The notes beneath the pieces were generated by a model. That model ran no database searches. It worked only from the letters and a program-made list of their open reading frames with translations, and had not been told where the DNA came from. DNA of 64,000 nt from Botryllus schlosseri (Eukaryota), in NCBI GenBank assembly GCA_051294905.1, contig CM119372.1, forward strand, positions 31,312,001-31,376,000. The letters run 5' to 3'. Both the position numbers and the translations under genes were made by a program. Shown piece after piece: positions 5,585 through 51,658 of this stretch. The number at the start of each line of letters is the position of its first letter. Within the stretch, counting starts at the first letter, position 1.

Positions 5585-6344
5585 CCCTAGAGTCAATCTA
5601 CCCAACGACCTCGGGCTAATCTATTGTATCTACTGCTGGTGCCATTGTATTCTCATAATTGAGAATAAGCTACATTCAATTATGGGTATTTGCGAAAGAA
5701 TTTTTTTTTGGAATACAGATGATGGAATCAAGACGTGTATGGACACTAAATCCCGCGAAGCGCGAAGAAAGATGTTAAGTTGCCTTCATCTGTCCCAAAT
5801 TACTGTAATATTTATTGAGTTTACGAAAATTCTCCAAATATTTGGGGGCCGCGATCGTCGCGTTCGCCCTTCCCTGGCTACGCCAATGCGGACACAGGAT
5901 CCACATTGCATACGGATTCCATTTTATCGAATAGGGCGGAATCCGGGTCTCGAAAAACCGTTATTTGTCTGTACATGTTTTGGAGCTGCACAAATCAGCA
6001 AGAACGTCGTAAGTGGGCGCCGATACTCCACGTTAGAGCTGAGTCAATCAAGCGAGTGATTGCCGAGTTCACAGTCTGCAAACAACCAGACTCAACTCGT
6101 CCTGGCGAAATTTCGGCGAAATCTCTGTGATCACGTGAAACACTATTACTGCGAACTCGGAATATTAACCCTCAACTGAGCGCAGGACAGTATTCCACTA
6201 TTCAATAATCGAAATGTTAGGTTATTCTAAACAAATATAATATCTCTAATACCTATACATCTTCTATTCACAGTGAGACCGGCTAACGAGAATCAACTTG
6301 ACACATTAGTGCCATTTTCCCTGTCGCAATATTCCGCCTTTCGG

Positions 6345-6935
6345 ATATGTGACCGCCATTCCAAATGGGCGACATATTACAAAGTATGCTCAATTCCAAG
6401 ATGAATTCAAGAATGTTTCGCTGATATATTTCACACAATCAACGTATTGCCGGAAAGGTCTTTCACAGTACTTTAAGAAAAATCTAAATTAGGAGTGATT
6501 ATCGGCCTTGTTTGTTTTAATACCACTAACAACCTCAGGCAAAATTGGGTATCGGACATATGCCCGCCATTCCAAATGTGCGACATATTCCAAAGTATGC
6601 CCAATTCAAAGCTGAATTCAAGGGTCTTTCGCCAATATATTTCACACAATCAACGTATTGCCGGAAACGTCATTCAAAGTACGTTAAGAAAAATCTAAAT
6701 TAGGAGTGATTATCGGCCTTGTTTGTTTTTAATACCACTAACAACCTCAGGCAAAATTGGGTATCGGACATATGCCCGCCATTCCAAATGTGTGACATAT
6801 TCCAAAGCATACAAATTCCAAGCTGAATTCAAGAGTGTTTCGCCGATATATTTCACACAATCAACGTATTGCCGGAAAGGTCTTTCACAGTACTTTAAGA
6901 AAAATCTAAATTAGGAGTGATTATCGGCCTTGTTT
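6345..6935 (+). repeat. 211-bp tandem units (2 full plus partial) in the extra left arm
   Basis: Unit marker AGGAGTGATTATCGGCC at 6491, 6702, 6913. Confidence 0.9.
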
Positions 6936-7209
6936 GTCCTGGCGAAATTTCGGCCTTGTTCGTCCTGGCGAAATTTCGGCGAAATCTCTGTGATCACGTG
7001 AAACACTATTACTGCGAACTCGGAATATTAACCCTCAACTCGCCGCTGGGCAATATTCCACTATTCAATAATCGAAATGTTAGGTTATTCTAAACAAATA
7101 TAATATCTCTAATACCTGTACATCTTCTATTCACAGTAAGACCGGCTAACGAGAATCAACTTGACACATTAGTGCCATTTTCCCTGTCGCAATATTCCGC
7201 CTTTCGGAT

Positions 7210-9500
7210 ATGTGACCGCCATTTCAAATGGGCGACAGATTCCAAAGTATGCTCAATTCCAAGATGAATTCAAGAATGTTTCGCCAATATATTTCACACA
7301 ATCAACGTATTATCGGAAAGGTCTTCCACAGTACTTTAAGAAAAATCGACATTCAGAGTGATTATCGGCCTTGTTTGTTTTCAATACGACTACCAACCTT
7401 AGATAATATTGCGCTATCAGACATATACCCGCCATTCCAAATGTGCGACATATTCCAATGTATGCCCAATTCGAAGCTGAATTCAAGGGTCTTTCGCCAA
7501 TATATTTCACACAATCAACGTATTGCCGGAAAGGTCTTTCAAAGTACGTTAAGAAAAATCTAAATTAGGAGTGATTATCGGCCTTGTTTGTTTTTAATAC
7601 CACTAACAACCTCAGGCAAAATTGGGTATCGGACATATGCCCGCCATTCCAAATGTGCGACATATTCCAAAGTATGCCCAATTCAAAGCTGAATTCAAGA
7701 GTGTTTCGCCGATATATTTCACACAATCAACGTATTGTCGGGAAGGTCTTTCAAAGTACGTTAAGAAAAATCTAAATTCAGAGTGATTATCGGCCTTGTT
7801 TGTTTTTAATACCACTACCAACCTCAGGTAAAATTGCGTATCGGACATATGCCCGCCATTCCAAATGTGCGACATATTCCAAAGTATGCCCAATTCAAAG
7901 CTGAATTCAAGGGTCTTTCGCCAATATATTTCATACAATCAGCGTATTATCGGAAAGGTCTTTCACAGTATTTTAAGAAAAATCTAAATTAGGAGTGATT
8001 ATCGGCCTTGTTTGTTTTTAATACCACTAACAACCTCAGGCAAAATTGGGTATCGGACATATGCCCGCCATTCCAAATGTGCGACATATTCCAAAGTATG
8101 CCCAATTCAAAGCTGAATTCAAGGGTCTTTCGCCAATATATTTCATACAATCAGCGTATTATCGGAAAGGTCTTTCACAGTATTTTAAGAAAAATCTAAA
8201 TTAGGAGTGATTATCGGCCTTGTTTGTTTTTAATACCACTAACAACCTCAGGCAAAATTGGGTATCGGACATATGCCCGCCATTCCAAATGTGCGACATA
8301 TTCCAAAGTATGCCCAATTCAAAGCTGAATTCAAGAGTGTTTCGCCAATATATTTCACACAATCAACGTATTGTCGGGAAGGTCTTTCAAAGTACGTTAA
8401 GAAAAATCTAAATTCAGAGTGATTATCGGCCTTGTTTGTTTTTAATACCACTAACAACCTCAGGCAAAATTGGGTATCGGACATATGCCCGCCATTCCAA
8501 ATGTGCGACATATTCCAAAGTATGCCCAATTCAAAGCTGAATTCAAGAGTGTTTCGCCAATATATTTCACACAATCAACGTATTGTCGGGAAGGTCTTTC
8601 AAAGTACGTTAAGAAAAATCTAAATTCAGAGTGATTATCGGCCTTGTTTGTTTTTAATACCACTACCAACCTCAGGTAAAATTGCGTATCGGACATATGC
8701 CCGCCATTCCAAATGTGCGACATATTCCAAAGTATGCCCAATTCGAAGCTGAATTCATGGGTCTTTCGCCAATATATTTCATACAATCAGCGTATTATCG
8801 GAAAGGTCTTTCACAGTATTTTAAGTAAAATCTAAATTAGGAGTGATTATCGGCCTTGTTTGTTTTTAATACCACTTACAACCTCAGGCAAAATTGGGTA
8901 TCGGACATATGCCCGCCATTCCAAATGTGCGACATATTCCAAAGTATGCCCAATTCAAAGCTGAATTCAAGGGTCTTTCGCCAATATATTTCATGCAATC
9001 AGCGTATTATCGGAAAGGTCTTTCACAGTATTTTAAGAAAAATCTAAATTAGGAGTGATTATCGGCCTTGTTTGTTTTTAATACCACTAACAACCTCAGG
9101 CAAAATTGGGTATCGGACATATGCCCGCCATTCCAAATGTGCGACATATTCCAAAGTATGTCCAATTCAAAGCTGAATTCAAGAGTGTTTCGCCAATATA
9201 TTCCACACAATCAACGTATTGTCGGGAAGGTCTTTCAAAGTACGTTAAGAAAAATCTAAATTCAGAGTGATTATCGGCCTTGTTTGTTTTTAATACCACT
9301 ACCAACCTCAGGTAAAATTGCGTATCGGACATATGCCCGCCATTCCAAATGTGCGACAGATTCCAAAGCATACAAATTCCAAGCTGAATTCAAGAGTGTT
9401 TCGCCGATATATTTCACACAATCAAGGTATTATCGGAAAGGTCTTTCAAAGTACTTTATGAAAAATCTAAATTCAGAGATGATTATCGCCCTTGTTTGTT
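7210..9500 (+). repeat. Tandem array, ~10 full units, mostly 212 bp (left arm)
   Basis: Unit markers at 7354, 7567, 7779, 7991, 8203, 8415, 8627, 8839, 9051, 9263, 9474. Confidence 0.95.
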
Positions 9501-10562
9501 CTGTACAGTGGTTTTATGCAGTGCATGTTGCAGGTTTGTTGATGATCCATTTATTAAGTGGAATTGTAGTCGTCGTGCTGTATTATACGCTAAGATCTTA
9601 TGTAAGTGAATTAATCCCCGCTGACATCATGAGACTTCGCTTGATGTATGAACTGAGCATGAACACTAAACTGTTTCGCTATAATACTCTGTTTTGTGAG
9701 TTGAGCCGACATTTGCAAGTGTAAAAACTGATCGCAAGACGTGGACACCACAGAACGGTAGCTTTCATAATTCCGTGGTCAACGATACGCCCCTGCCTAA
9801 TGTTGAATACTTCAAATACTGATACGCAGTCTAAACATTGTTTGGTCAATCCTATTACTCAGCTATTCGGTATGTCGCGAAGGACCGACCGAACTAACAA
9901 CAACGTTTTCAATTCTACGATACTTAGACCACTATTTCGAAACACGGATACAACTTCAACAACTTGTTTATCTTCCAACAAAAATCCAAGTAACCCCAAT
10001 ATATGTTGAAATATATTAAATACTTGCACAATACATCTTTGTAGAATGTTAGCAACTCACTGCCGTTACGTGATAGCTTAGATACAAAAAATCAATACAT
10101 GGCAAACCAATATTGTTATTATTATTATAGATAGTAAAAAATGAAGTAGCGCTTATCGCCGTTAACGATCTGGTGCACCTCGTGAGTAAACGTTAAATCA
10201 GTAGAAATACATATCAAAAGTTCACATTAATCACAGCAATATATGATGCGCGTATTTACAACATGATAAAAGAAAATAGTCGATTGTGTCAGGTAGAAAA
10301 CGGAAGTCAAATGTAGGAGAATCAATACACCCAATTTTAAACAGATGCACTGTTGGTAGTTAATGACCTGGAAAAAGGCAAACAAAATATTATCATGTCG
10401 ACGCGATATTCCAAATGACGATATTCGGTCGAAAACGGACGGACGCAATAATTCATCCGCAATTTCATTTCCGGGAATGCCGCTGTGCCGCTGACGGCTA
10501 CGTCGATGCCCGAATGATCCGTTCAAGATAAGGATACATTTCATGAAGCCAATATTGTAATA

Positions 10563-11532
10563 TTACCACTGCCGATTGAGTTCTTCGGTCAATCGATTCA
10601 TATTTTCCAGAACTTGTTCATATGTTCTCTTCTCGATAATCGATAGATACATCAAAGCAACTTCAGGAAAAACAACCCATTTGAAATATTTACTGCAATT
10701 GTAGGTTGGCCCCAATTGCGTTACGAGCTCACTTTCTTTATGCACGAAAGCATTGTTCAGAACTGGTCGCAAAAAGTGTCGGGTGGATTTGTATTCGTCA
10801 CCTGTGGTCAAACTTCTTATCCATCTTTCATGCGTGATACAAGTCTTACTTCTGATATAATTTAATATCACTTCAAGTTCGTCGTTCCAATGTTCTCTTC
10901 CAGAATCCGTCGTTACAGGTAAGATCATTTTTTGTAATTGGCTGTATTTTCTTTCGAGAAATGAAGCATGATACTGATACCGAACTTCACTCTTCGCCTC
11001 CTGTAATGTCAGATTAGCAATTTTTACAACATTTTGGCATGTCGCATCGCCCATTTCCTTGACTTCATCATTGACATCCGCAATAATCGATGGCAGTGCT
11101 TTCATAAAATATTCGGTCTGGGGTGACGATTGCAGAGGCCTTCGTTTTGGATGTTTTTTAACATAAAGAAAGATGTATCCCGATCTAGACATGACATCGA
11201 AGGCTTTTTTCGAATCCACAAATCTCACATGTTCGTCGTCGCATAGCTGCACCGATCTCTTTGGGCTCATTAAATATGCAGTATAATGCCCGTTTTGGGA
11301 GGTTCCGCTGTGTGCGATCACCGCCTTGAGGGCATATCCAATCAGGATTTGGTTAGATCCTTTGATGTCCAGATTTCTACTGGGAATGACGACATTTTCC
11401 AACTTTTCAGCTTCGTCGTTCAAACGGTTAAGGCGCACGGTCACTATCCTTGGAGTCTCATTGAATTTGACATTAATATCCATCATGGAACCACATTTTC
11501 CACATGTTCGTTTCAAAATTTCAAATGCATCA
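10563..11532 (-). pseudogene. 5'-truncated ubiquitin-specific protease (peptidase C19) ORF: His-box half plus ~200-aa tail
   Basis: CGKC, PRIVTVRLNR, YALKAVIAHSGTSQNGHYTAY, CDDEHV and GYIFLYVK motifs; no Cys box; frame open to the repeat junction (upstream stop at 11544-11546). Confidence 0.8.
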
Positions 11533-14500
11533 GCCTGAGGTTGTTAGTGGTATTAAAAACAAACAAGGCCGATAATCACTCCTAATTTAGATTTTTCTTA
11601 AAGTACTGTGAAAGACCTTTCCGGCAATACGTTGATTGTGTGAAATATATCGGCGAAACACTCTTGAATTCAGCTTGGAATTTGTATGCTTTGGAATATG
11701 TCACACATTTGGAATGGCGGGCATATGTCCGATACCCAATTTTGCCTGAGGTTGTTAGTGGTATTAAAAACAAACAAGGCCGATAATCACTCCTAATTTA
11801 GATTTTTCTTAACGTACTGTGAAAGACCTTTCCGATAATACGCTGATTGTATGAAATATATTGGCGAAAGACCCTTGAATTCAGCTTTGAATTGGGCATA
11901 CTTTGGAATATGTCGCACATTTGGAATGGCGGGCATATGTCTGATACCCAATTTTGCCTGAGGTTGTTAGTGGTATTAAAAACAAACAAGGCCGATAATC
12001 ACTCCTAATTTAGATTTTTCTTAAAGTACTGTGAAAGACCTTTCCGGCAATACGTTGATTGTGTGAAATATATCGGCGAAACACTCTTGAATTCAGCTTG
12101 GAATTTGTATGCTTTGGAATATGTCACACATTTGGAATGGCGGGCATATGTCCGATACCCAATTTTGCCTGAGGTTGTTAGTGGTATTAAAAACAAACAA
12201 GGCCGATAATCACTCCTAATTTAGATTTTTCTTAAAGTACTTTGAAAGACCTTTCCGGCAATACGTTGATTGTGTGAAATATATCGGCGAAACACTCTTG
12301 AATTCAGCTTGGAATTTGTATGCTTTGGAATATGTCACACATTTGGAATGGCGGGCATATGTCCGATACCCAATTTTGCCTGAGGTTGTTAGTGGTATTA
12401 AAAAGAAACAAGGCCGATAATCACTCCTAATTTCGATTTTTCTTAAAGTACTGTGAAAGACCTTTCCGGCAATACGTTGATTTTGTGAAATATATCGGCG
12501 AAACACTCTTGAATTCAGCTTGGAATTTGTATGCTTTGGAATATGTCACACATTTGGAATGGCGGGCATATGTCCGATACCCAATTTTGCCTGAGGTTGT
12601 TAGTGGTATTAAAAACAAACAAGGCCGATAATCACTCCTAATTTAGATTTTTCTTAACGTACTTTGAATGACCTTTCCGGCAATACGTTGATTGTGTGAA
12701 ATATATTGGCGAAATACCCTTGAATTCAGCTTTGAATTGGGCATACTTTAGAATATGTCGCACATTTGGAATGGCGGGCATATGTCCGATACCCAATTTT
12801 GCCTGAGGTTGTTAGTGGTATTAAAAACAAACAAGGCCGATAATCACTCCTAATTTCGATTTTTCTTAAAGTACTGTGAAAGACCTTTCCGGCAATACGT
12901 TGATTGTGTGAAATATATCGGTGAAACACTCTTGAATTCAGTTTGGAATTTGTATGCTTTGGAATATGTCGCACATTTGGAATGGCGGGCATATGTCCGA
13001 CACCCAATTTTGCCTGAGGTTGTTAGTGGTATTAAAAACAAACAAGGCCGATAATCACTCCTAATTTAGATTTTTCTTAAAGTACTGTGAAAGACCTTTC
13101 CGGCAATACGTTGATTGTGTGAAATATATCGGCGAAACACTCTTGAATTCAGCTTGGAATTTGTATGCTTTGGAATATGTCGCAAATTTGGAATGGCGGG
13201 CATATGTCCGATACCCAATTTTGCCTGAGGTTGTTAGTGGTATTAAAAACAAACAAGGCCGATAATCACTCCTAATTTAGATTTTTCGTAAAGTACTGTG
13301 AAAGACCTTTCCGGCAATACGTTGATTGTGTGAAATATATCGGCGAAACACTCTTGAATTCAGCTTGGAATTTGTATGCTTTGGAATATGTCGCACATTT
13401 GGAATGGCGGGCATATGTCCGATACCCAATTTGGCCTGAGGTTGTTAGTGGTATTAAAAACAAACAAGGCCGATAATCACTCCTAATTTAGATTTTTCTT
13501 AACGTACTTTGAATGACCTTTCCGGCAATACGTTGATTGTGTGAAATATATTGGCGAAAGACCCTTGAATTCAGCTTTGAATTGGGCATACTTTGGAATA
13601 TGTCGCACATTTGGAATGGCGGGCATATGTCCGATACCCAATTTTGCCTGAGGTTGTTAGTGGTATTAAAAACAAACAAGGCCGATAATCACTCCTAATT
13701 TAGATTTTTCTTAAAGTACTTTGAAAGACCTTTCCGGCAATACGTTGATTGTGTGAAATATATCGGCGAAACACTCTTGAATTCAGCTTGGAATTTGTAT
13801 GCTTTGGAATATGTCACACATTTGGAATGGCGGGCATATGTCCGATACCCAATTTTGCCTGAGGTTGTTAGTGGTATTAAAAACAAACAAGGCCGATAAT
13901 CACTCCTAATTTAGATTTTTCTTAACGTCCTGTGAAAAACCTTTCCGGCAATACGTTGATTGTGTGAAATATATTGGCGAAACACTCTTGAATTTACCTT
14001 GGAATTTGTATGCTTTGGAATCTGTCGCACATTTGGAATGGCGGGCATATGTCCGATAGCGCAATTTTACCTGAGGTTGGTAGTGGTATTAAAAACAAAC
14101 AAGGCCGATAATCACTCGTAATTTAGATTTTTCTTAACGTACTTTGAATGACGTTTCCGGCAATACGTTGATTGTGTGAAATATATTGGCGAAAGACCCT
14201 TGAATTCAGCTTTGAATTGGGCATACTTTGGAATATGTCGCACATTTGGAATGGCGGGCATATGTCCGATACCCAATTTTGCCTGAGGTTGTTAGTGGTA
14301 TTAAAAACAAACAAGGCCGATAATCACTCCTAATTTAGATTTTTCTTAAAGTACTGTGAAAGACCTTTCCGGCAATACGTTGATTGTGTGAAATATATCG
14401 GCGAAACACTCTTGAATTCAGCTTGGAATTTGTATGCTTTGGAATATGTCACACATTTGGAATGGCGGGCATATGTCCGATACCCAATTTTGCCTGAGGT

Positions 14501-14900
14501 TGTTAGTGGTATTAAAAACAAACAAGGCCGATAATCACTCCTAATTTAGATTTTTCTTAACGTACTTTGAATGACGTTTCCGGCAATACGTTGATTGTGT
14601 GAAATATATTGGCGAAAGACCCTTGAATTCAGCTTTGAATTGGGCATACTTTGGAATATGTCGCACATTTGGAATGGCGGGCATATGTCCGATACCCAAT
14701 TTTGCCTGAGGTTGTTAGTGGTATTAAAACAAACAAGGCCGATAATCACTCCTAATTTAGATTTTTCTTAAAGTACTGTGAAAGACCTTTCCGGCAATAC
14801 GTTGATTGTGTGAAATATATCAGCGAAACATTCTTGAATTCATCTTGGAATTGAGCATACTTTGTAATATGTCGCCCATTTGGAATGGCGGTCACATATC
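11533..14900 (-). repeat. Tandem array, 15 full units of 211-212 bp (right arm, inverted)
   Basis: Unit markers at 11579, 11790, 12002, 12213, 12424, 12635, 12847, 13058, 13269, 13480, 13692, 13903, 14115, 14327, 14538, 14749. Confidence 0.95.
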
Positions 14901-16592
14901 CGAAAGGCGGAATATTGCGACAGGGAAAATGGCACTAATGTGTCAAGTTGATTCTCGTTAGCCGGTCTCACTGTGAATAGAAGATGTATAGGTATTAGAG
15001 ATATTATATTTGTTTAGAATAACCTAACATTTCGATTATTGAATAGTGGAATACTGTCCTGCGCTCAGTTGAGGGTTAATATTCCGAGTTCGCGGAAATA
15101 GTGTTTCACGTGATCACAGAGATTTTGCCGAAATTTCGCCAGGACGAGTTGAGTACAACCATGCACTTCGCAAACAATGACTATGTTCGGCAATGCCGAA
15201 TCGTCTGCTGATTGCTGAACGCAATGGCCCAGCTTTGCCGACTGAATATATCAACAGGATAAACCGTGAGACTTTGCCAAATACCGCTATGGAGCAGTGA
15301 TTTTCGTTATAACGGTGTTTCCTCTTTTATTCTTATAATTCTGATGTTGAAAGCAAATTCAAATTTAATTGCATTGAATTGAGCTGCATGTTTTCTTCAA
15401 AGCGAAGCAGTAAATGTCTCAGTCAGTGAACGCAAAACTGTTTTGGCATCAGATGAAGGTTGAGATATGAAAATACATGCAGCCGAATTTAGTCTGCAGT
15501 CCAAAGAACCAAAAAAGTGGAACTGAGGTTTTATGTTCAAATCTGAAATCTGAAGTATTGATGGTGAATGATATGCAAATCTGTGGCATAATTTTTGAGA
15601 AAAAGTGCCGACAGTAGTTTCCGTGGCATAGTGGCATGGCATACTACCTTTTGTCTTTTGATATGTTTGGTAATATGGAATTGGTGTCTTGTGCACACCG
15701 GGGATTCTAGCCACTGCACTGGACACCAAATGGCCCTGTGGATATATACGCAGTTCACGCAGATCACGCCGGTATCACGTGGGTATCACTCTCCCACGTT
15801 GTTCTGGTGCTCAGGTTCAAGTCTGGAGTGTTTTTGGGGATGTGTTCCAGTTTGTTTAGTAATCATAATCAGGTATCTCGCAGGTAAACCTCCAGCACTT
15901 CGGAATCAAACTCTGAAGTCGACCTCGGATGGACTCGAACCCGTGTGTCTGCGGTGTGTTCATGCTAGTTATCATGTCTTGTGTTTATTTGTCGCCGATT
16001 TTTAAATTCGTTGAATTTGCATTTTGCCAGATGGTTTGAAGCGGCTGAAGGAGACACTTTGCTCGCGTGAGCTTACGACCTGGACTAGCATCGAACAGGC
16101 GGCCTTGGAAGCAAAATCTATACTGCTACCGGTAGTGGTTACTTCCAACATTTGGGACGCAGGTCCTAAGCGGTGAAAGTTCATCTGTGATCCTTGATGA
16201 AGGATCGAAAAGGAAGCGAATGTGAAGGATGGGATTTCGTATCTCAATTCCCAAATACATCAAGTTAAACGCTTGTCCATTAATTAAAGAAATAACACCT
16301 CAATGTCGTCATAGTCAATTCATGGTCTACTTTGGACGTACGTCACAAAGATGCGAATTTTGGGACAGATAATATGGAGTTTGCGCAGCTGTTCTCAGAT
16401 TAGTTGATATCATTTCATTATTGATGTAATGGAATAGTTGGCTACTATATAATATATTTGCTGTTCACCAATATAATTGGCAACCTTCGTTGCGAGTTAC
16501 TTTCAAATAGTAAGCTAAAACTCGTTTCAGACAGATATTAAATGCGTGAACTGCGTATATCCACAGTGCCCACCAAATACATTGTGCTAAAC

Positions 16593-27766: not shown

Positions 27767-28888
27767 GTTATTACTCAGTGTATAGTCGTTTTTCGTATTT
27801 GAGAATTCTCTCATCAAAAGTCATAACATTCCATGCCGACCAACTATCCGTTGGGATTGCCAGCATTCTGATTGCATTTTGTGATATGACGATAAGGGGG
27901 CGACGGAATTTTTCACTATCATAAAGGGGTGCGTGTCTAAAAAAGTTTCAGAACTACTTCCCTACACGGTGTGTGCTTCAAATTGTTACGTCATACCATT
28001 CCAAATCCGACATTTGTAAAAAGTCAATCGGTGCCCGTGATTATTATAAGTCATCAGCGCCCATAAAGAGTGAACGGACATGTCAAAAAAGAAAGCCGAA
28101 ACCTGAAATTCAAAGTTTAATGAAGTCAAGGGTAAACCGGTCATTTTAGTATAGTTATTGACGATCAGGTCGCATTGTTTAAGGAGTATAATTTAAGTCG
28201 ATCTTCTGACAAAAATACGAAGACGTAGGCCTACACTCGGTAAAGGGAGGGCTAATTTCAGAATAACTGCAAGCTTCGCTCCACAAGCCAAGCTCTACAG
28301 TGTCAGGTAGGCAGCGACCAATTAAAGACAATAAGCTGTGTAATATCACAAAATATTTTAATGTCTTGATAGAATAACGCGGATAGGGATTTAAACAGAG
28401 TTCAAAAGGTATCACCGGGGCCTACGATAACTTAAGTTATCGTAGTTAAGTTATCGTAGGCCCCGGTATCACGTTTAACATTGTTTCGAAATGTGACGGC
28501 AGATAACGTTATCTTTTGGTAATCAACCGTCGCTTTCACATTCCCTATTATCAACACATCCATCCACTGATCCGTTTTAATCAAGAGTGTAATTCACTGC
28601 TTTCAATTTAGAAATAAAATTGATGCGCTGAAGAACATAGGTAATATACTTTTTGACTCGGCCCGCAAACGTATATTCCGCTTCTCATTTGGCCCGTGGA
28701 CAAAAGTAATTGCCCACCCCTGCTATAAACAATCAGCCCAGCCCAATAATTATAATTGTCGGGCCATAAGTAGCCTAGTGGGCTATATTGCGAAGCGTCG
28801 ACGTGAAAGCCGACACGTAGTTCCATCAACAAGCAACATAGCATTTAATGTGTTCACCGCAAGAAGTTTATTGAATCTTTTCGTAGGT

Positions 28889-29947
28889 ATGGCTATTTGC
28901 GGTACGTCAAGGTCACATGATGAGGCGGCTTTGGAGTTCGCAGATTGTTACCACAAAGAATCGGAGGTACTCGGTCTTGGCTCTTTCTCGGTTGTAAAAA
29001 TATTCACCGAAAAGTCGTCGGGGAATGAATGCGCCGTAAAAATCGTCAAGAAAGCGTACCTAAAACCAGACGAAATAAGACTGCTAGAACAGGAAAGTAA
29101 TATACTGAGCAAGCTGAAACACCGGAATGTCGTTAAATTTAAAGACAGCTTCTCTAATCCGCAGTTTTATTATCTCGTAATGGAACTGCTGACAGGAGGC
29201 GGTCTATATCAATACGTCACGACCAAAAAACGTACATCGCACTGCGAGGAAAACGTTGTGTGGTACATGCGCGACATACTGAACGGACTGCACTATTGCC
29301 ACGGGATGAACATCATTCACAGGGACTTGAAACCTATGAACTTGTGTGTAGCTTTTGACCTCGGACGTGAAGTTGTGAAGTTGATAGACTTCGGCGTGGC
29401 GGTTGACACGAAGGGAAGATCTCGATATCGGCATGGAATTGTCGGCACGCTCGGTTATAGAGCCCCGGAAATGATTAATGACGAGAAGTACGGAACTGCA
29501 GTCGACCTATACGGCTGCGGATGCGTCCTTTATAATCTACTTATCGGCTGCCACCCGGGCAGCGGCGAAATATCGTTGCCTTCCCCACACCGTGGGCTTA
29601 TCTCAAATCCGGCGGTGGATTTACTGGCAAAACTATTGAATCCTTATCAAGACAAACGGATTACGGCCGCGCAAGCTTTGAATCATTCGTTTTGTAGTCT
29701 GCGCGAACGCGGGGCACTGAACAAACATCTTGACATAGCCGTGGAGAGATTGACAGAATTCACGCAAAAGAAGATGTGGAAAACAGCGGCAGCCGTCGGG
29801 GTTATTACCAGCGTGGCGATGGCGCCGATTGTCGGAGCGGCAATGGGAACTTCGCTACGTTTGGAGCCGCTCAGCTCATCTAAGAAGACAGTCACGTTTT
29901 CAAATCCCACGACTCGTAAATCCAGCGATGTAAGATCTCGTTATTGA
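28889..29947 (+). CDS. Intronless CaMK-group Ser/Thr kinase (CaMKII/CASK-like, divergent), 352 aa
   Basis: GLGSFSVV, AVKIV, HRDLKPMN, DFG, GTLGYRAPE and KRITAAQAL motifs, then a regulatory-like segment; first in-frame ATG at 28889. Confidence 0.9.
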   Translation: MAICGTSRSHDEAALEFADCYHKESEVLGLGSFSVVKIFTEKSSGNECAVKIVKKAYLKPDEIRLLEQESNILSKLKHRNVVKFKDSFSNPQFYYLVMELLTGGGLYQYVTTKKRTSHCEENVVWYMRDILNGLHYCHGMNIIHRDLKPMNLCVAFDLGREVVKLIDFGVAVDTKGRSRYRHGIVGTLGYRAPEMINDEKYGTAVDLYGCGCVLYNLLIGCHPGSGEISLPSPHRGLISNPAVDLLAKLLNPYQDKRITAAQALNHSFCSLRERGALNKHLDIAVERLTEFTQKKMWKTAAAVGVITSVAMAPIVGAAMGTSLRLEPLSSSKKTVTFSNPTTRKSSDVRSRY

Positions 29948-32571: not shown

Positions 32572-34135
32572 ATGGGTGCGTGTATCTGAGCTAGTGGATT
32601 CCGGTCTTATTAATTACTTCGTTGAAGCACGGTTATTTAGCAACCTCTGGTAAAGATTGACGCTATACTTTGAAGATTGGAATTGCTGATACATATCAGA
32701 CCAAATTAAAAAACTCCTTTGATCAGACTCGTGCGATTCCAAATTAGCACTTTTTAACGGGAGGTGTTCCAGTCGCATTAATTTCGGAGGGATCTTACTG
32801 ACCTGACACCCCTAGACTCAATCAACTCAACGACCTCGGACAATACTCCCGTGTATGTATTGGTACTGTTGTATTCTCATGCAGCTAAATTCAATTATGC
32901 GCATTTGTGGAATAATTTTTTTCGGGTTACCGATAATAAAATCTAAAATCCAGACGTGTATGGACACTAAATCACGCGAAGCGCGAAAAAATATTTTAGG
33001 TTGCATTCATCTGCCCCAAAATACTGTCATACTTATTGATTTTACGAAAAGTTGCCAAAAATTTGGGGGGAGCGATCGCCCCTCTCTGGCTACGCCAGTG
33101 GTCTTGCGTAAACCATAAGGAAAGAAACAATACGAAAACAATACTCATAATGTTAAAACGTGATAAAATGCATCAATTTATAATCAGGTTGAACCTCTAG
33201 TAAAATGACGAAACGCATGTGCATAATGTGCAATTATTAAAGAGCCGCAATTAAATGCTGAAAGAGCTGCAGTTTGCCCACCCCTGCTGTATATGCATGT
33301 ATGTCTTGCAACACAAGCAGTTTATACCTCCGGTAACGGGCAGTATTAAATTGCAATCGACGCGATGGATCAATTGGAACATGAGACTGGATTCCTTTCT
33401 GATTTTTTTTAAATCAGGTAGCCTTCTATGCCTCCTGTATTGAATGATGTGCTACCTCGTATCTAGTTTTCAGCGCTCCTCAGTGACAGGCGAGTATCGC
33501 AACGACAATTTTAGCTCATAAAATAACGATTGTATGTATAATTTCGGCTCTCGAAATTACGGGCTATCATGCTCAACTGGAATCATCACAATCGATGCTC
33601 GATTTGGATTCTAATATGCCCATTGCCCATCCTTACATATAGCTGGTCTTAAACGAGTTATAGTGTAGGTTATTTTTATGTACTGATTGCGTGGAGAATT
33701 GTGACGTAAGTAGACCGTGAACCCGATGCTACAGTCCTATGCAGAAAATACATTCCTATTACGAAATCAATGAAAAATATGACCCTTCATTTCTCTAATT
33801 GCTGGACAAGCGTCCAAATTCTTTGCTAATTTGCAATTCACGTATAAAATTGTAGACGTACCGGCAAGAAACTCAACTCGTATCGGCAACGGTCCGACGA
33901 CCAGCGATTGAGAGCCACTGATGTATATGGATTCCAATTTCATTGACGCTTCTCAATCCGTCTTAGAAATTATCTGATTACAATGAGTTGACCTCATTCA
34001 CGCTCAACATGATATTGAATGCGGCATTTATTCAATTACATATATTTTACATACACCATAAGAAACAACGAGCATTGGAAAATATACATATGAACTGAAT
34101 CGCTCCTGAATATTAAATTTCGCAGTGTGTCTCTG

Positions 34136-37100: not shown

Positions 37101-40100
37101 TTTTACTTGAGTAGTTTTCTAGACTACTTTGACCACCTCTGGGTATATCTGAATTTTTGGCAAATATTTAAATCTAAACGGATAATCTCCGTGTAGTAGC
37201 CTAAATTAAACAGTGTCATATTTTTCTAGAAATATCCGTTTGACATCACAATAATGTATTGAAGACGACGGGGCGAGTATTAAAGCTACAAATACTGACT
37301 TGCTGATAGACGAACGATGACCAGACGCAGACGGAATGTCTTCGTCTACAGCCATCGCGTAATTGTGGTATCCGGCGTCGACTTTGCCATCATCGTACTC
37401 GTCTTCTTCATCGTCTGGTTCTTCGCTAAAATTAAACGCAATGTATATCAGCAACTGCGAAAGCAGGACAAAATTCCTATCGGGTCAATACGCGCGGCCA
37501 AAATACGTATTAAGCCGTATTTATTTACGTTGCTGTGAACTTTATTCATTCACTGCAATTATCTGATTATTCAAACAGGTAGTCTTCTGCATATTAAAGC
37601 ATGTCGTAATTGGTCAAAACAGTCTGCAAACCTGCTCGAGTTGAAGAAAATGAGCCGAAGAAGTCAACCGCAGGTGTCGACTTTACATATTGAACGATAC
37701 ATAATAGACAGGGTTGTAATGACTCGAGACATTTTTTAAAATGCGTAAAATGACTCGACTTGTCCTCAAGTAATTGTGCATGACTCGAACCAAATCATAT
37801 GACTCGAGAATAGAACGGCCAAGACAGACATGTCATTGTAACTGCGAATAATAGTAGAGCCACCATATTATTGGCTGTGTTTTGTGGTATTCATGGTGTG
37901 GACTACTATGGTCATTTACATCAGGTCAATTTTATTCAGTAGCTGCCGACTTGTAACACGACCCACTTCTAGGCTTTTATAAGACACCGCTTACGTGGAT
38001 CCAAGATTTAGGTAGAAATTCTGCAGTCGACCTGTAACGACAATGACTCAGACGACTCGAACCTCTACTCCAGACCTGCGTAAAGTGCGACCCGCGGAGC
38101 TATTCTGTTTGTCGACTATGGGTGATTTACACCAGGCCGATATTCCTTATTTTCGATTCCGTATCTGCCGACTTGTAGCACGGCCCACTTAAAGGCTTAT
38201 ACGCGGATGAGGTAGAAATTCTGGAGTCAACCTCGGTCGGACTCGAACCCACAACCCATTGGTGTTGTAGCTGCGGATCATACCACTACGCTATCTCGCC
38301 ACACGATATACATCACAGTGATTTAGGGCAAGTTTTTGTTGCAGTCGAATCCGACGAAAGTTGCACTTATTTTTCACAAAGGTTGCAGTAAAAATTTGCA
38401 TATATTTTTCACAAAAGTTACACTGCAAAGTTGTATTTATGGACAAAGTTCCTTGAAATTATGAGGATTTGAGATACTCAAATCGATCCGTATCCAAGGC
38501 ACTGTAGCAAAACTCGGTGTTGGCGACTTCAATAAAATCAATAGCCTGAAAAAATTCACCCAGTGGAAACATAATTTTCGGCGGTCTAGCCTGAATATAC
38601 GTCAAAGAACCTCAAATTTAAACGAAAGTGAAATAACCAAGCGATATATTTACATATATAGTGCCAATTATTTCAAGTAAAATGTTGGATGCATGAGAAA
38701 TCGGAAAAATCTTTCAAAAATTTACATGAAAAATCGAAAAAAAGTTGCATGAAATATCGATAAAGTTGAAAAAAATTGACTGAAAAAATGGAGAAAAGTT
38801 GCAAAAAGTTGAACCATAGGATTCCTCCAAACAGCTTAAAACACCATACTACATAACTTCTGAGTATTTAGGAAGCTGCCGGGAGCTGTAAAAAAAGTTG
38901 CAAAAGTTGCAAAAACTTGCTCTAGTGATTATACAATCCTCAAATTAAAAATGTGTCTTCATTTGCCACATCACAGGTGCAGTTTTGTACTATACGATAT
39001 TTGTTTTAGTTTCCCTATCGATCGCCAACATCCTGTGCGGAATAGTCCTGATGATATCCATAATTCCCAATATACTAACGATGCTTAACGGATTAAAAGT
39101 CTACCGACTGAGCTAACCGTGCTGCGTTAGCCATTGTTCGATAGGGGTTGATTCCGTGAGAGAAATAGGGCACTTATCAAACGAAACAAACTAAAACATC
39201 CAGGATCATTCCCGACAAGGGACTTGAACCCTTGACTGTTGGATTGAAACGCCAACGCCCTACCGACTGAGCTATCCGGGGCGGTTTCGTTAGCGTTCAA
39301 TAGGGGTTAATTGTTTAAGAGTAATAGGGTAATTATTAAAACATCTGAACTAATATACAATGGAACACGCCCGAAAGGGGACTCGAACCCTTGACCGCTG
39401 GGTTAAAAGTCCAACGCTCTACCGCTAGCCTGTGATCGATAGGGGTTGATTGTTTAGGAGTAATAGGGTAAATATAAATCAAATTCGGACGAATATACGC
39501 GCCCGATAAGGGACTTGAACCCTTGACCGTTGGATTAAAAGTCCAACGCTCTACCGACTGAGCTAACCGGGCCGCGTTAGTCAGCGTTCGATAGGGGTGA
39601 ATTATTTAGGAGTAACAGGGTAATTATAAAACAAAGCTGAACTAATATACAAAAAAACGCGCCCGTTGTGGGACTTGAACCCTTGGCCGTTGGATTAATA
39701 TTCGAAATACGAAAATTCCATGACAATGTCCATGTCCAATAGTCCAAGTCCTGATACAGTTGAGTGAAAGCGTTCGGTAGGGGTTGATTGTCTAGGAGTA
39801 ACGGGGTAATTAAAAAACAAAACTTAACTATTATACAAAGGAAGGCGCCCGATAAGGGACTTGAACCCTTGACCGTTGGATTAAAAGTCCAACGCTCTAC
39901 CGACTGAGCTAACCGGGCCGCGGTAACCAGCGTCCGATAGGGGTTAATTGTTTAGGAGTATTAGGGTGATTATAAAACAAAACTGAACTAATATACAAAG
40001 GAACACGGCCGATAAGGGATTTGAACCTTTGGCCTGGATTATGATTCGAAATCCGAAAATTCCATGACAATGTCCCGATACATTTTAGTAAAAGTCGAGA

Positions 40101-49165: not shown

Positions 49166-49534
49166 TATCAATCGGAAGCTACCGCGGTACTGACTGCGAA
49201 AATATAAATTTTATTCTGCTCGTGGTCTTGGAGCCACCCAAAATCGGCCTCGAATGTTGTATTGTAACGGAGATTGGTATTGTGATGCAAGAGAGCCGTT
49301 CAGGAGCGAGTGAGCACGAGAGTCGAGAGTGTGAGTGCTCAATCGCTTGATCAACGATGGCCAATATGCTTTCGGTTTGCGCTGCTTCTCATCTGCTCCG
49401 ATACGGCATTGCCGCGTCACAATACCTCCTCGCTACAATGCAAGATTCGAGGCTGATTTTTGGGGGTTCCGGGACCACGAGCAGAATAAAATTTATATTT
49501 TCGCAATCAGTACCGCGATAGCATTCGATTGATA
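49166..49534. mobile_element. Palindromic MITE with ~100-bp inverted arms
   Basis: TATCAATCG...CGATTGATA arms; one arm recurs at ~30280-30403. Confidence 0.7.
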
Positions 49535-49918: not shown

Positions 49919-51658
49919 TAGGGCTCTTCAAAAATGACTTTTTCTCTCAAATCGTACTGGCTACTTGATCAAATTGTTAGGTTACCTAATTTAAGCCTAC
50001 ACACAAAATTTGGTTCAATTCCAGCGAGTAACCGCTATGCTACAGGAGAAGAAAGTTTCTATTTATTATATAAAAATAAATGATAAAAAATTTGAAAATT
50101 TTCAGTTCACCCCATGAAAGTGTTACGTTGTCTATAGAAACGATCCTCATTTTTTTTTTTTTTTTTTAATTTTTATGCGGCTCTCCGGAAGCCCAGACCA
50201 TCGCAGGCCCTCTCTACATCTGGTATAGGTGCCTGCTCCGGTCTGGGGGTTTTGAAGTTCTTCTTTGTATTTTTTATGTTCTTCTTTGTATTTTTTATAT
50301 TTTCTAACTAAGGAGGTTGAACAGTATTTAAATTAATGTAATGGTTTCTTGTTTTTCTCTTTTTCCTTTCTCTAGTTAGTTCTCAGTAGTTACTACCCTG
50401 ACGCATCTCAACGGGAGAAAGTTGGTTCTCCCGTGGCTTACTTTTTTGGGGGTTTTGGTCTCTATTTTCCTCCCCATTTTGGGCCCTCTTTTTTTTCCTC
50501 TTTGTTATTTTCCTACTCTATCGAGTTTTCTCTCTATATTTTTGACTATTTTTGATACGTGTTTGTTGTTTTCTTCGTTTTCTAGTCGTTTTTTGACTTT
50601 TCGTAGGATTTTCATCTCCAATCCTTCATTTTCTATTCCTTCATTTTCTATTTTTTTGTTATCAATATCGAGAGCAATCTTCAGGTTTATTATCGTCTTT
50701 TTCATAATCGATGCAATGATCCAGTTAATTTTTTTTTTCCGGTGTTATACATTATTGAGTCATTGTCTAGTTCGAGTCCTAGCGTTTTTTCGATTTTTTC
50801 TTTAATATCTGCAATATATTCACAATCAGTGAATATATGTTTTGCACAGTCGTTACTCGAATTACAAAATTTGCAGTTCAGGAGTAATTTCCTGCCATTT
50901 TTGTCCTCTGTTATATTCCGTCTTCTTTTTTTCTGTCCGAATATGTATCCGTCATGTGCCGCCCGATAATTAATGATCATTTCACTATTAGTTATCATAT
51001 TCTTCCCAAAACACTTGGTTCTGGTTATTTTTGTCCATTTTATTTTCTTTCCGTGTTGTGTTCGGAGTTCTATCTCATTTTCTTAGAGATTTTTTATTCC
51101 TTTATACAATTCTTTGTGGGAGCTCTCTCTCCACTCTTCCTCTTTCCATCCGATTTTTTTGCCAATTCTATGCTATCCACCCAACTTTTTGGTGTAGGAT
51201 ATTTGTGTCTTTCGTTATCATTATAGAGGTTGGGTCGGATGGCTTTTTATTTTTAAGCGGAGTTATTGCCGTCGAAAAATTTCAATTTGAATAAAATAGT
51301 ATTTACGGTGAGCACAAGTATAATAAATAGACAAAGAATCGGTCACCGTAAATACTATTTTATTCAAATTCAAATTTTTCGACGGCAATAACTCCGCTTC
51401 CACTGGTTGGAATTGAACCAAATTTGGTGAGCATCGTTTCTATAGACAGCCTAACACTTTCATGGGGTGAACAGAAAAATTTCAAATTTTTTATTATTTA
51501 TTTTTATACAATAAATAGAAACTTTCTTCTCATGTAGCAAAGCGGTTACTGGCTGGAATTGAACCAAATTTTGTGTGTAGGCTTAAATTAGGTAACCTAA
51601 CGATTTTATCAAGTAGCCAGTACGATTTGAGAAAAAAAGTCATTTTTGAAGAGCCCTA
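49919..51658. mobile_element. Near-fully palindromic hAT-type MITE interrupted by a LINE
   Basis: TAGGGCTCTTC TIR with ~230-bp arms; perfect TSD CTGTACAG; central inverted repeat 51255-51399. Confidence 0.85.
50150..51254 (-). mobile_element. 5'-truncated, dead L1/Tx1-type LINE 3' end
   Basis: Poly(A) tail (T run 50150-50167); CKFC-x7-HIFTDC zinc-finger-like region; in-frame stop upstream and frameshift near 50725. Confidence 0.75.

Follow-up and report, generated by a model that had tools for sequence, protein, structure and literature searches.

Rehavkus elements carry tandem repeats within their long inverted ends (10.1101/2024.12.02.626372); they occur in or beside Mutator-like elements (MULEs), have a PHD finger and 9-bp target-site duplications, and are described mainly in Repbase (PMC6446971). 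The MULEs of an animal, Aedes aegypti, make duplications of 8 or 9 bp (PMC5225508), and in Galileo an inverted repeat can be restored from its partner, an event proposed for the lengthening of its ends (PMC3573991). Ubiquitin- and SUMO-type proteases have also been found in DNA transposons, with Ulp1 or OTU domains in Ginger1 and Mutator elements, a peptidase C19 in a Trichomonas transposase (PMC2836005) and UCH domains in Helentrons (PMC11417382); what such proteases are for is raised only as a possibility in the accessible part of PMC2836005. Here we analyzed a 64,000-nt window of the Botryllus schlosseri genome (assembly GCA_051294905.1, contig CM119372.1, positions 31,312,001-31,376,000, forward strand; all coordinates below are those of the window) and found that 6090-15154 is a 9,065-bp copy of a foldback-type transposon, with satellite arms and a remnant of a ubiquitin-specific protease (USP) gene. 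Its anatomy, on which the proposed parent and the link to a transposase depend, makes it probable that this copy is non-autonomous and arose by deletion from a cut-and-paste foldback transposon of Mutator/Rehavkus-like type.

An earlier note on this DNA had described a piggyBac-like element at 7032-15075, with TTAA target-site duplications at its ends. A TTAA duplication at the boundary is a hallmark of piggyBac, as is an element that begins with CCC and ends with GGG. The motifs stand where that note had located them, with TTAA at 7028-7031 followed by CCCTCAACT and a mirror motif with TTAA at 15076-15079, but they do not mark the ends. The window contains three ends (end A, beginning at 6090; end B, beginning at 6960; and the right end, at 15154), each with an outer segment, and the third end at 6090-6937 had been overlooked. 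The terminal domain is a 264-bp inverted repeat that reaches 75 bp past TTAA on either side, so TTAA is internal (terminus positions 76-79) and is not a target duplication. TTAA-CCCT occupies positions 76-83 of the terminus on all three ends, and CTCAACT is found both at the outer terminus and right after TTAA-CC.

The outermost symmetric boundaries, 6090 and 15154, are bordered by ACAACCAG and ACAACCAT, an 8-bp duplication that matches at seven of eight positions and whose length is read from a single insertion, the only one with both flanks visible. A match of at least 7/8 at a fixed boundary has a chance probability of 0.0006 (200,000 random flank pairs), and a scan of the boundaries found no 9-bp flank pair with one mismatch or fewer. 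Matches to the terminal sequence ACTCAACTCG at 33871 and 44032 were rejected as chance, the similarity not extending further. Folding of the terminal 111 nt was no better than that of shuffled sequences (z -0.44), and comparison of the terminal domain with the repeat unit revealed no clear common motif.

To place the family's end independently of this one copy, contigs of four public sequencing runs (X1, X5, X6 and X7; four samples) were aligned to 5750-6370, and the survey draws on the 32 of 122 contig pieces and the 21 of 30 loose-end rows that were listed. In all four runs the summed depth steps up at the bin 6086-6106 (6.3 to 722 in X1, 0 to 7.1 in X5, 0 to 3103 in X6 and 0 to 12.7 in X7), summed depth not being equivalent to copy number. 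Five of the 21 listed rows are loose ends just before 6087-6090 with unrelated flanks, at least one in each run. Contig starts at 6087-6090 with unrelated flanks indicate that the family is dispersed, that its first letters are ACTCAAC and that the outer segment belongs to it. Among terminal contigs the deepest, from X6 (depth 828), begins exactly at 6090. A terminal contig from X7 covers 6089-6212, crossing TTAA, and starts at 6089 with G, while a T precedes 6090 in a flank from X5; the G that precedes 6090 in several loose ends is probably an alignment bias, since about 31 letters must match before a flank contig is placed. No listed loose end falls at TTAA-CCCT (6165-6172), where the earlier note had expected other copies to start, and copies start with ACTCAAC at 6090, not with the CCC of piggyBac. 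That note had itself said that an outer 75-bp segment in other copies, together with non-TTAA duplications, would speak against its reading, and this is largely what we found.

The same contigs reveal some diversity within the family. Among terminal variants at 6148-6190, left-type and right-type letters at 6148/6150 both occur in X1 and X5, and X6 and X7 have almost only the right type, so that the ends of the family are heteromorphic and differ between samples. One X6 contig at 6151-6210 passes directly from the terminal domain into unit-like letters (its loose end lies after 6210), as another deletion derivative. An X1 contig matches the left flank (5920-6085) at 92% and continues for 300 letters that do not resemble the element; it is perhaps an empty allele, and we set it aside as evidence.

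Inside the terminal domains lie the satellite arms, for which the earlier note had counted inverted units of 211-212 bp, 10 on the left and 15 on the right. Our unit alignment agrees, with units of 211-213 bp and one additional partial unit in each arm. Unit identity is 88-100%, with group means of 92-95% (first 170 alignment columns). The two arms hold different unit subtypes, which alternate within each arm, and the right-arm unit C15 is nearest to the left-arm units B4/B5, a sign of exchange between the arms. The partial unit of the right arm that adjoins the coding frame is likely a deletion breakpoint: a fresh unit at the 5' end of the frame, and a diverged unit at the inner end of the left arm, point to a one-sided deletion from the right array.

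The unique core between the arms is 2.0 kb long and contains a stop-free minus-strand frame of 326 codons, compared with a longest frame of 189 codons in 1000 shuffles of the core; the first few codons derive from the repeat unit. Pfam assigns the frame to UCH (E 1.1e-14), with a match that begins at profile position 122 and runs to the last position, 254; positions 1-121 are absent. His and Asp align to those of USP2 and the Cys box is missing, so this copy does not have the Cys box, His box and Asp of an active USP in one domain. No transposase was seen in the window. The copy would make no working enzyme, because it would have lost its start and transposase along with the Ulp1-like domain and the catalytic Cys of the USP. 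A search of the PDB returned generic USPs only, Pfam gave nothing above cut-off for the C-terminal domain, and the mean pLDDT (AlphaFold's per-residue confidence) of 34.9 for the related protein P0005 and 52.1 for the C-terminal domain is too low for the folds to be used. The rest of the core, downstream of the gene remnant, had no match to the family profile or by tblastn. Thus far the earlier description is supported: a roughly 2-kb core with a USP fragment, and an element with an internal deletion that belongs to a multi-copy family whose arms are modular and kilobases long.

We looked for relatives of the encoded protein by profile search of 1.84 billion representative sequences, which gave 83 matches, nearly all across the USP half. 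The top three matches (P0002, P0003 and P0004; 1154-2009 aa) have five to seven tandem USP domains and were rejected as scoring through repetition; P0002, from the fish Pempheris klunzingeri, is named uncharacterized or USP18-like. Pfam searches of 21 of the 83 matches found no MULE or PHD domain, and the sole transposon enzyme was that of the Helitron-type protein P0043. Matches in the ESM Atlas were all below 0.9 and count only as leads, and metagenome DNA scans returned nothing except one locus, a generic USP unrelated to the element.

A smaller set of proteins shares more than the USP domain. P0005 (788 aa, from an ENA contig) aligns to residues 11-306 of the remnant (BLASTP E 3e-18), and when the C-terminal domain was compared alone, P0005 was the only match among 90 proteins (score 85; the best of 2000 shuffles scored 61). 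A hidden Markov model of the tail, built from P0005 and P0092 without the remnant, finds the remnant at E 2.8e-9 and otherwise matches only P0095 and P0010 among 95 proteins. A profile search for the family, over 7007 candidates, returned six proteins; two had been members of the query, and one is CAK8676875 of Clavelina lepadiformis. In the alignment, a USP Cys box comes after a Ulp1-like domain in the family proteins. Pfam C48 scores above cut-off in one of the six (P0095), and P0092 is Ulp1-like by its UniRef name. Residues of the family proteins that we take to be the catalytic His, Asp and Cys were read by motif. On these alignments the remnant is the last third of a predicted protein with a Ulp1-like domain, a USP domain and a conserved tail. 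The element itself probably encoded the polyprotein of which the USP remnant is the tail, which makes the earlier note's word "cargo" doubtful: a USP piece is indeed carried, but it belongs to a protein family that is likelier to be the element's own gene.

These observations suggest the following origin. The parent's gene, directed inwards from the right arm, would have specified a single long protein with a transposase, a Ulp1-like protease, a USP and the C-terminal domain. Insertion, with an 8-bp duplication, would depend on a transposase acting in trans that recognizes the terminal domains and perhaps also the repeat units. A deletion with one breakpoint in the right array and the other midway through the USP domain would then have cost this copy its start, transposase, Ulp1-like domain and the catalytic Cys of the USP. 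With both outer termini intact, the 9-kb copy would still be movable. Mutator elements and MULEs are recognized by duplications of 8-11 bp and by long terminal inverted repeats, often with subterminal repeats; here we found 8 bp (7/8 match, at one site) and 264-bp inverted repeats followed by arrays of units. The locus also has the Tetris-type foldback architecture of modular inverted arms around a variable middle, with a target duplication.

Several points weigh against this origin. The duplication has one mismatch, and an exact 7-bp alternative exists if the ends are asymmetric, with an extra G at the left end; its 8 bp also differ from the 9 bp of all five Rehavkus elements listed with a duplication. 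No transposase is found on any relative, and the six family proteins, partial frames of 347-788 aa, have no DDE or PHD match. Longer forms were absent among 1209 candidates in a search with the fragment and among 2204 (1380-3940 aa) in a search with the alignment, both being weak tests. Assembled contigs also drop rare variants, so that a G at 6190 that appears private to this copy may exist in other copies.

A more specific proposal concerns the function of the parent's proteases. The parent polyprotein may have combined a SUMO-type protease, a ubiquitin-type protease and a conserved tail as a double anti-silencing module, present across tunicates at least, an idea that we put forward tentatively and consider rather unlikely as it stands. 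If it were true, the proteases might strip silencing marks from the element's own satellite arms or from the transposition complex.

Among other explanations of the core, the one that survives best is a Pack-type capture, in which a gene-less foldback element took a piece of a Ulp1-like and USP gene from the host or, for example, from a Helentron, and the USP is true cargo. Non-autonomous animal MULEs do carry host fragments (PMC5225508), UCH domains travel in Helentrons (PMC11417382), the USP match P0043 is a Helitron-type protein, and the relatives come without an attached transposase. P0043, however, does not share the C-terminal domain, and the core has an uninterrupted frame with its stop, a 1-kb downstream region leading to a diverged unit and a fresh unit at the opposite side, which resembles a one-sided deletion more than a captured fragment. 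We therefore think capture unlikely. Sequence of the core is found in 20 listed runs, eight of them with half or more of its words, which does not decide between capture and an own gene; no RNA run was among the listed runs containing it.

A foldback element could also have been moved by another superfamily, namely a Galileo-like P element with a 7-bp duplication, or hAT or Zisupton with 8 bp. Duplications of 8 bp are typical of hAT and Zisupton. One extra G at the left end would permit an exact 7-bp duplication, and the terminal contig of X7 does start at 6089 with G; against this, the deepest X6 contig starts at 6090 and the X5 flank has T, which indicates that the extra G is not fixed. Galileo has 7-bp duplications and long repeat-bearing ends (PMC3573991), and foldback structure can arise in several lineages (PMC4079207). 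No THAP, hAT or Zisupton sequence was seen, and a literature search for Zisupton with a SUMO protease found nothing. We regard this explanation as improbable and continue to favor a Mutator/Rehavkus-like parent.

The doubled left end needs an explanation of its own. End A (6090-6937) is 99.6% complementary to 14307-15154 over 848 nt; it differs from the right end at three sites, all in the first 61 bp and each shared with end B. Its 787 bases from position 62 onward match the right arm without a difference, units A1-A3 equaling C1-C3 of that arm. End B differs from both end A and the right end at eight sites, at positions 89-186. The outer 61-88 bp of end A are thus of the left type and the remainder is of the right-arm type. 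One of the differing letters, at 6190, is G in end A and the right end and A in end B and in all of the aligned depth of the four runs. The junction at 6936-6960 has two, five and one shared bases at its three switches. From this pattern of sequence we consider it likely that the end was doubled by template switching: during replication or gap repair, synthesis that had started on the left terminus would have jumped, somewhere in positions 62-88, to the copy's own right arm, followed it for about 770 bases and resumed on the left arm through microhomology. The copied piece breaks off at 6937, and the left arm reaches its natural inner end at 9501, in almost the same unit phase (positions 161-163), possibly a hotspot of breakage or switching.

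Long palindromes are known to mislead long-read methods, and the identity of end A to the right arm over 787 bases is what would be expected if the doubling at 6090-6960 were an assembly or sequencing artefact in an otherwise real element. But end A is a recombinant of left and right types, both types of outer end occur in X1 and X5, and three microhomology switches at the junction are unlike a simple fold-back chimera. An artefact accordingly seems to us a poor explanation, and template switching the better one.

Least of all can we credit a piggyBac-like insertion into TTAA that spans 7032-15075, or a terminal repeat with a fossil piggyBac end inside it: TTAA-CCCT on all three ends and CTCAACT both at the outer terminus and just after TTAA-CC would suit it, but the inverted repeat runs 75 bp past TTAA, none of the 21 loose-end rows listed (of 30) is at TTAA and one X7 contig bridges it, TTAACCC occurs at five further places in the window, and no piggyBac transposase was seen in the window, so that this reading is largely refuted.

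Table 1. Parts of the foldback copy and its flanking duplication, in window coordinates.
Feature	Position	Strand	Remarks
Target-site duplication, left copy ACAACCAG	6082..6089	+	7/8 match to 15155-15162
End A: true left terminus and 264-bp terminal domain, starting ACTCAACTCG	6090..6353	+	TTAA-CCCT internal, 6165-6172
Extra copied arm piece, 2.8 units identical to the outermost right-arm units (likely template switching)	6354..6937	+	mismatch-free against 14307-15154 after position 61
Patchwork junction: unit, terminus 10-28, unit, terminus from 8	6936..6960	+	read from sequence
Inner left terminal domain (end B), without its first 7 bases	6960..7216	+	TTAA-CCCT at 7028-7035
Left satellite arm: 10 full units (212-213 bp) and a diverged partial inner unit	7217..9501	+	unit alignment
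Core beyond the gene remnant on its downstream side, non-coding (likely 3' region)	9502..10562		no match elsewhere in the window
5'-truncated frame: C-terminal half of USP (C19), unnamed C-terminal domain of ~185 aa, TAA stop	10563..11532	-	Pfam UCH
Right satellite arm: 15 full units (211-213 bp) and an undegraded partial unit adjoining the coding frame	11533..14890	-	unit alignment
Right terminal domain (264 bp), true right terminus	14891..15154	-	TTAA internal, 15076-15079
Target-site duplication, right copy ACAACCAT	15155..15162	+	pairs with 6082-6089

Elsewhere in the window, 28571-29947 (plus strand) holds an intact intronless frame of 458 codons for a Ser/Thr kinase (Pfam Pkinase, E 1.8e-57), either a retrocopy or borne by an element. 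A degenerate tandem array at 39100-40075, with a period of about 150-160 bp and copies 68-78% alike, appears by eye to be derived from a tRNA or a short interspersed element. At 50702-51082 (minus strand), a weak zf-RVT match (E 0.005, below the cut-off) beside a T-rich tract is probably the 3' remnant of a long interspersed element. Short palindromic stretches resembling miniature inverted-repeat transposable elements lie at 49166-49534 and 51255-51399.

The main value of the locus is as a correction: TTAA-CCCT inside a long inverted repeat mimics the ends of a piggyBac element, a likeness by which annotation would be led astray. Two events seem to be preserved in the copy at base resolution: a deletion reaching from satellite arm into gene, and the rebuilding of an end from the opposite arm, the latter being the kind of event proposed for lengthening the ends of Galileo. 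Its distant relatives, with tandem Ulp1-like and USP domains whose catalytic motifs look intact, provide a way to test what SUMO and ubiquitin proteases do for the DNA transposons that carry them. This copy is unable to provide such a test itself, because the catalytic Cys and everything upstream of it are gone.

The likeness to Rehavkus lies in size (5-18.5 kb), in terminal inverted repeats of 26-412 bp (264 bp here; PMC6446971) and in satellite units of variable copy number inside the inverted ends, as found here. It differs in its 8-bp duplication (7/8), in having no transposase or PHD finger, and in its USP and unnamed C-terminal domain, which the accessible parts of PMC6446971 and 10.1101/2024.12.02.626372 do not mention for Rehavkus. 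We do not class the element as Rehavkus proper, because the duplication at its single site is not of 9 bp and the transposase part is missing from this copy. Tetris of Drosophila virilis likewise has an outer unique domain, a variable number of tandem units of about 220 bp, duplications of 8-10 bp, non-autonomous status and many rearranged forms (PMC4079207); compared by description, its cores are non-coding, whereas the core here has a USP remnant (PMC4079207). Muta1 and other Aedes MULEs share long ends with subterminal repeats (the type 2 foldback) and deletion derivatives that keep common ends, but as far as the accessible text of PMC5225508 goes, Muta1 has 12-bp repeats, 145-bp ends and no protease, in contrast to the 212-bp units and arms of 2.5-3.6 kb here.

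Galileo, of the P superfamily, would call for a THAP transposase, and no transposase was seen here, and for a 7-bp duplication that requires asymmetric ends here; the base before 6090 varies among copies. The likeness to piggyBac is limited to the internal TTAA-CCCT motif; the motif is off the boundary, and the duplication is of 8 bp and not TTAA. Ginger1 differs in having 4-bp duplications and short ends (PMC2836005). In common with other protease-bearing DNA transposons the element has a ubiquitin- or SUMO-type cysteine protease domain aboard (PMC2836005, PMC11417382), but its relatives join a Ulp1-like domain, a USP and a conserved tail in tandem, and the context is a satellite-armed foldback. 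The earlier note had known of no described element with this combination. That statement was too broad, since satellite arms (Rehavkus, Tetris) and transposon C19 peptidases are both published; it held for Ulp1 together with USP in a foldback or Mutator element, which was not found in a literature search sparse in subscription papers and made without Repbase. Foldback arms and single proteases being already published, what is new here is the tandem Ulp1-like, USP and tail gene predicted for this family.

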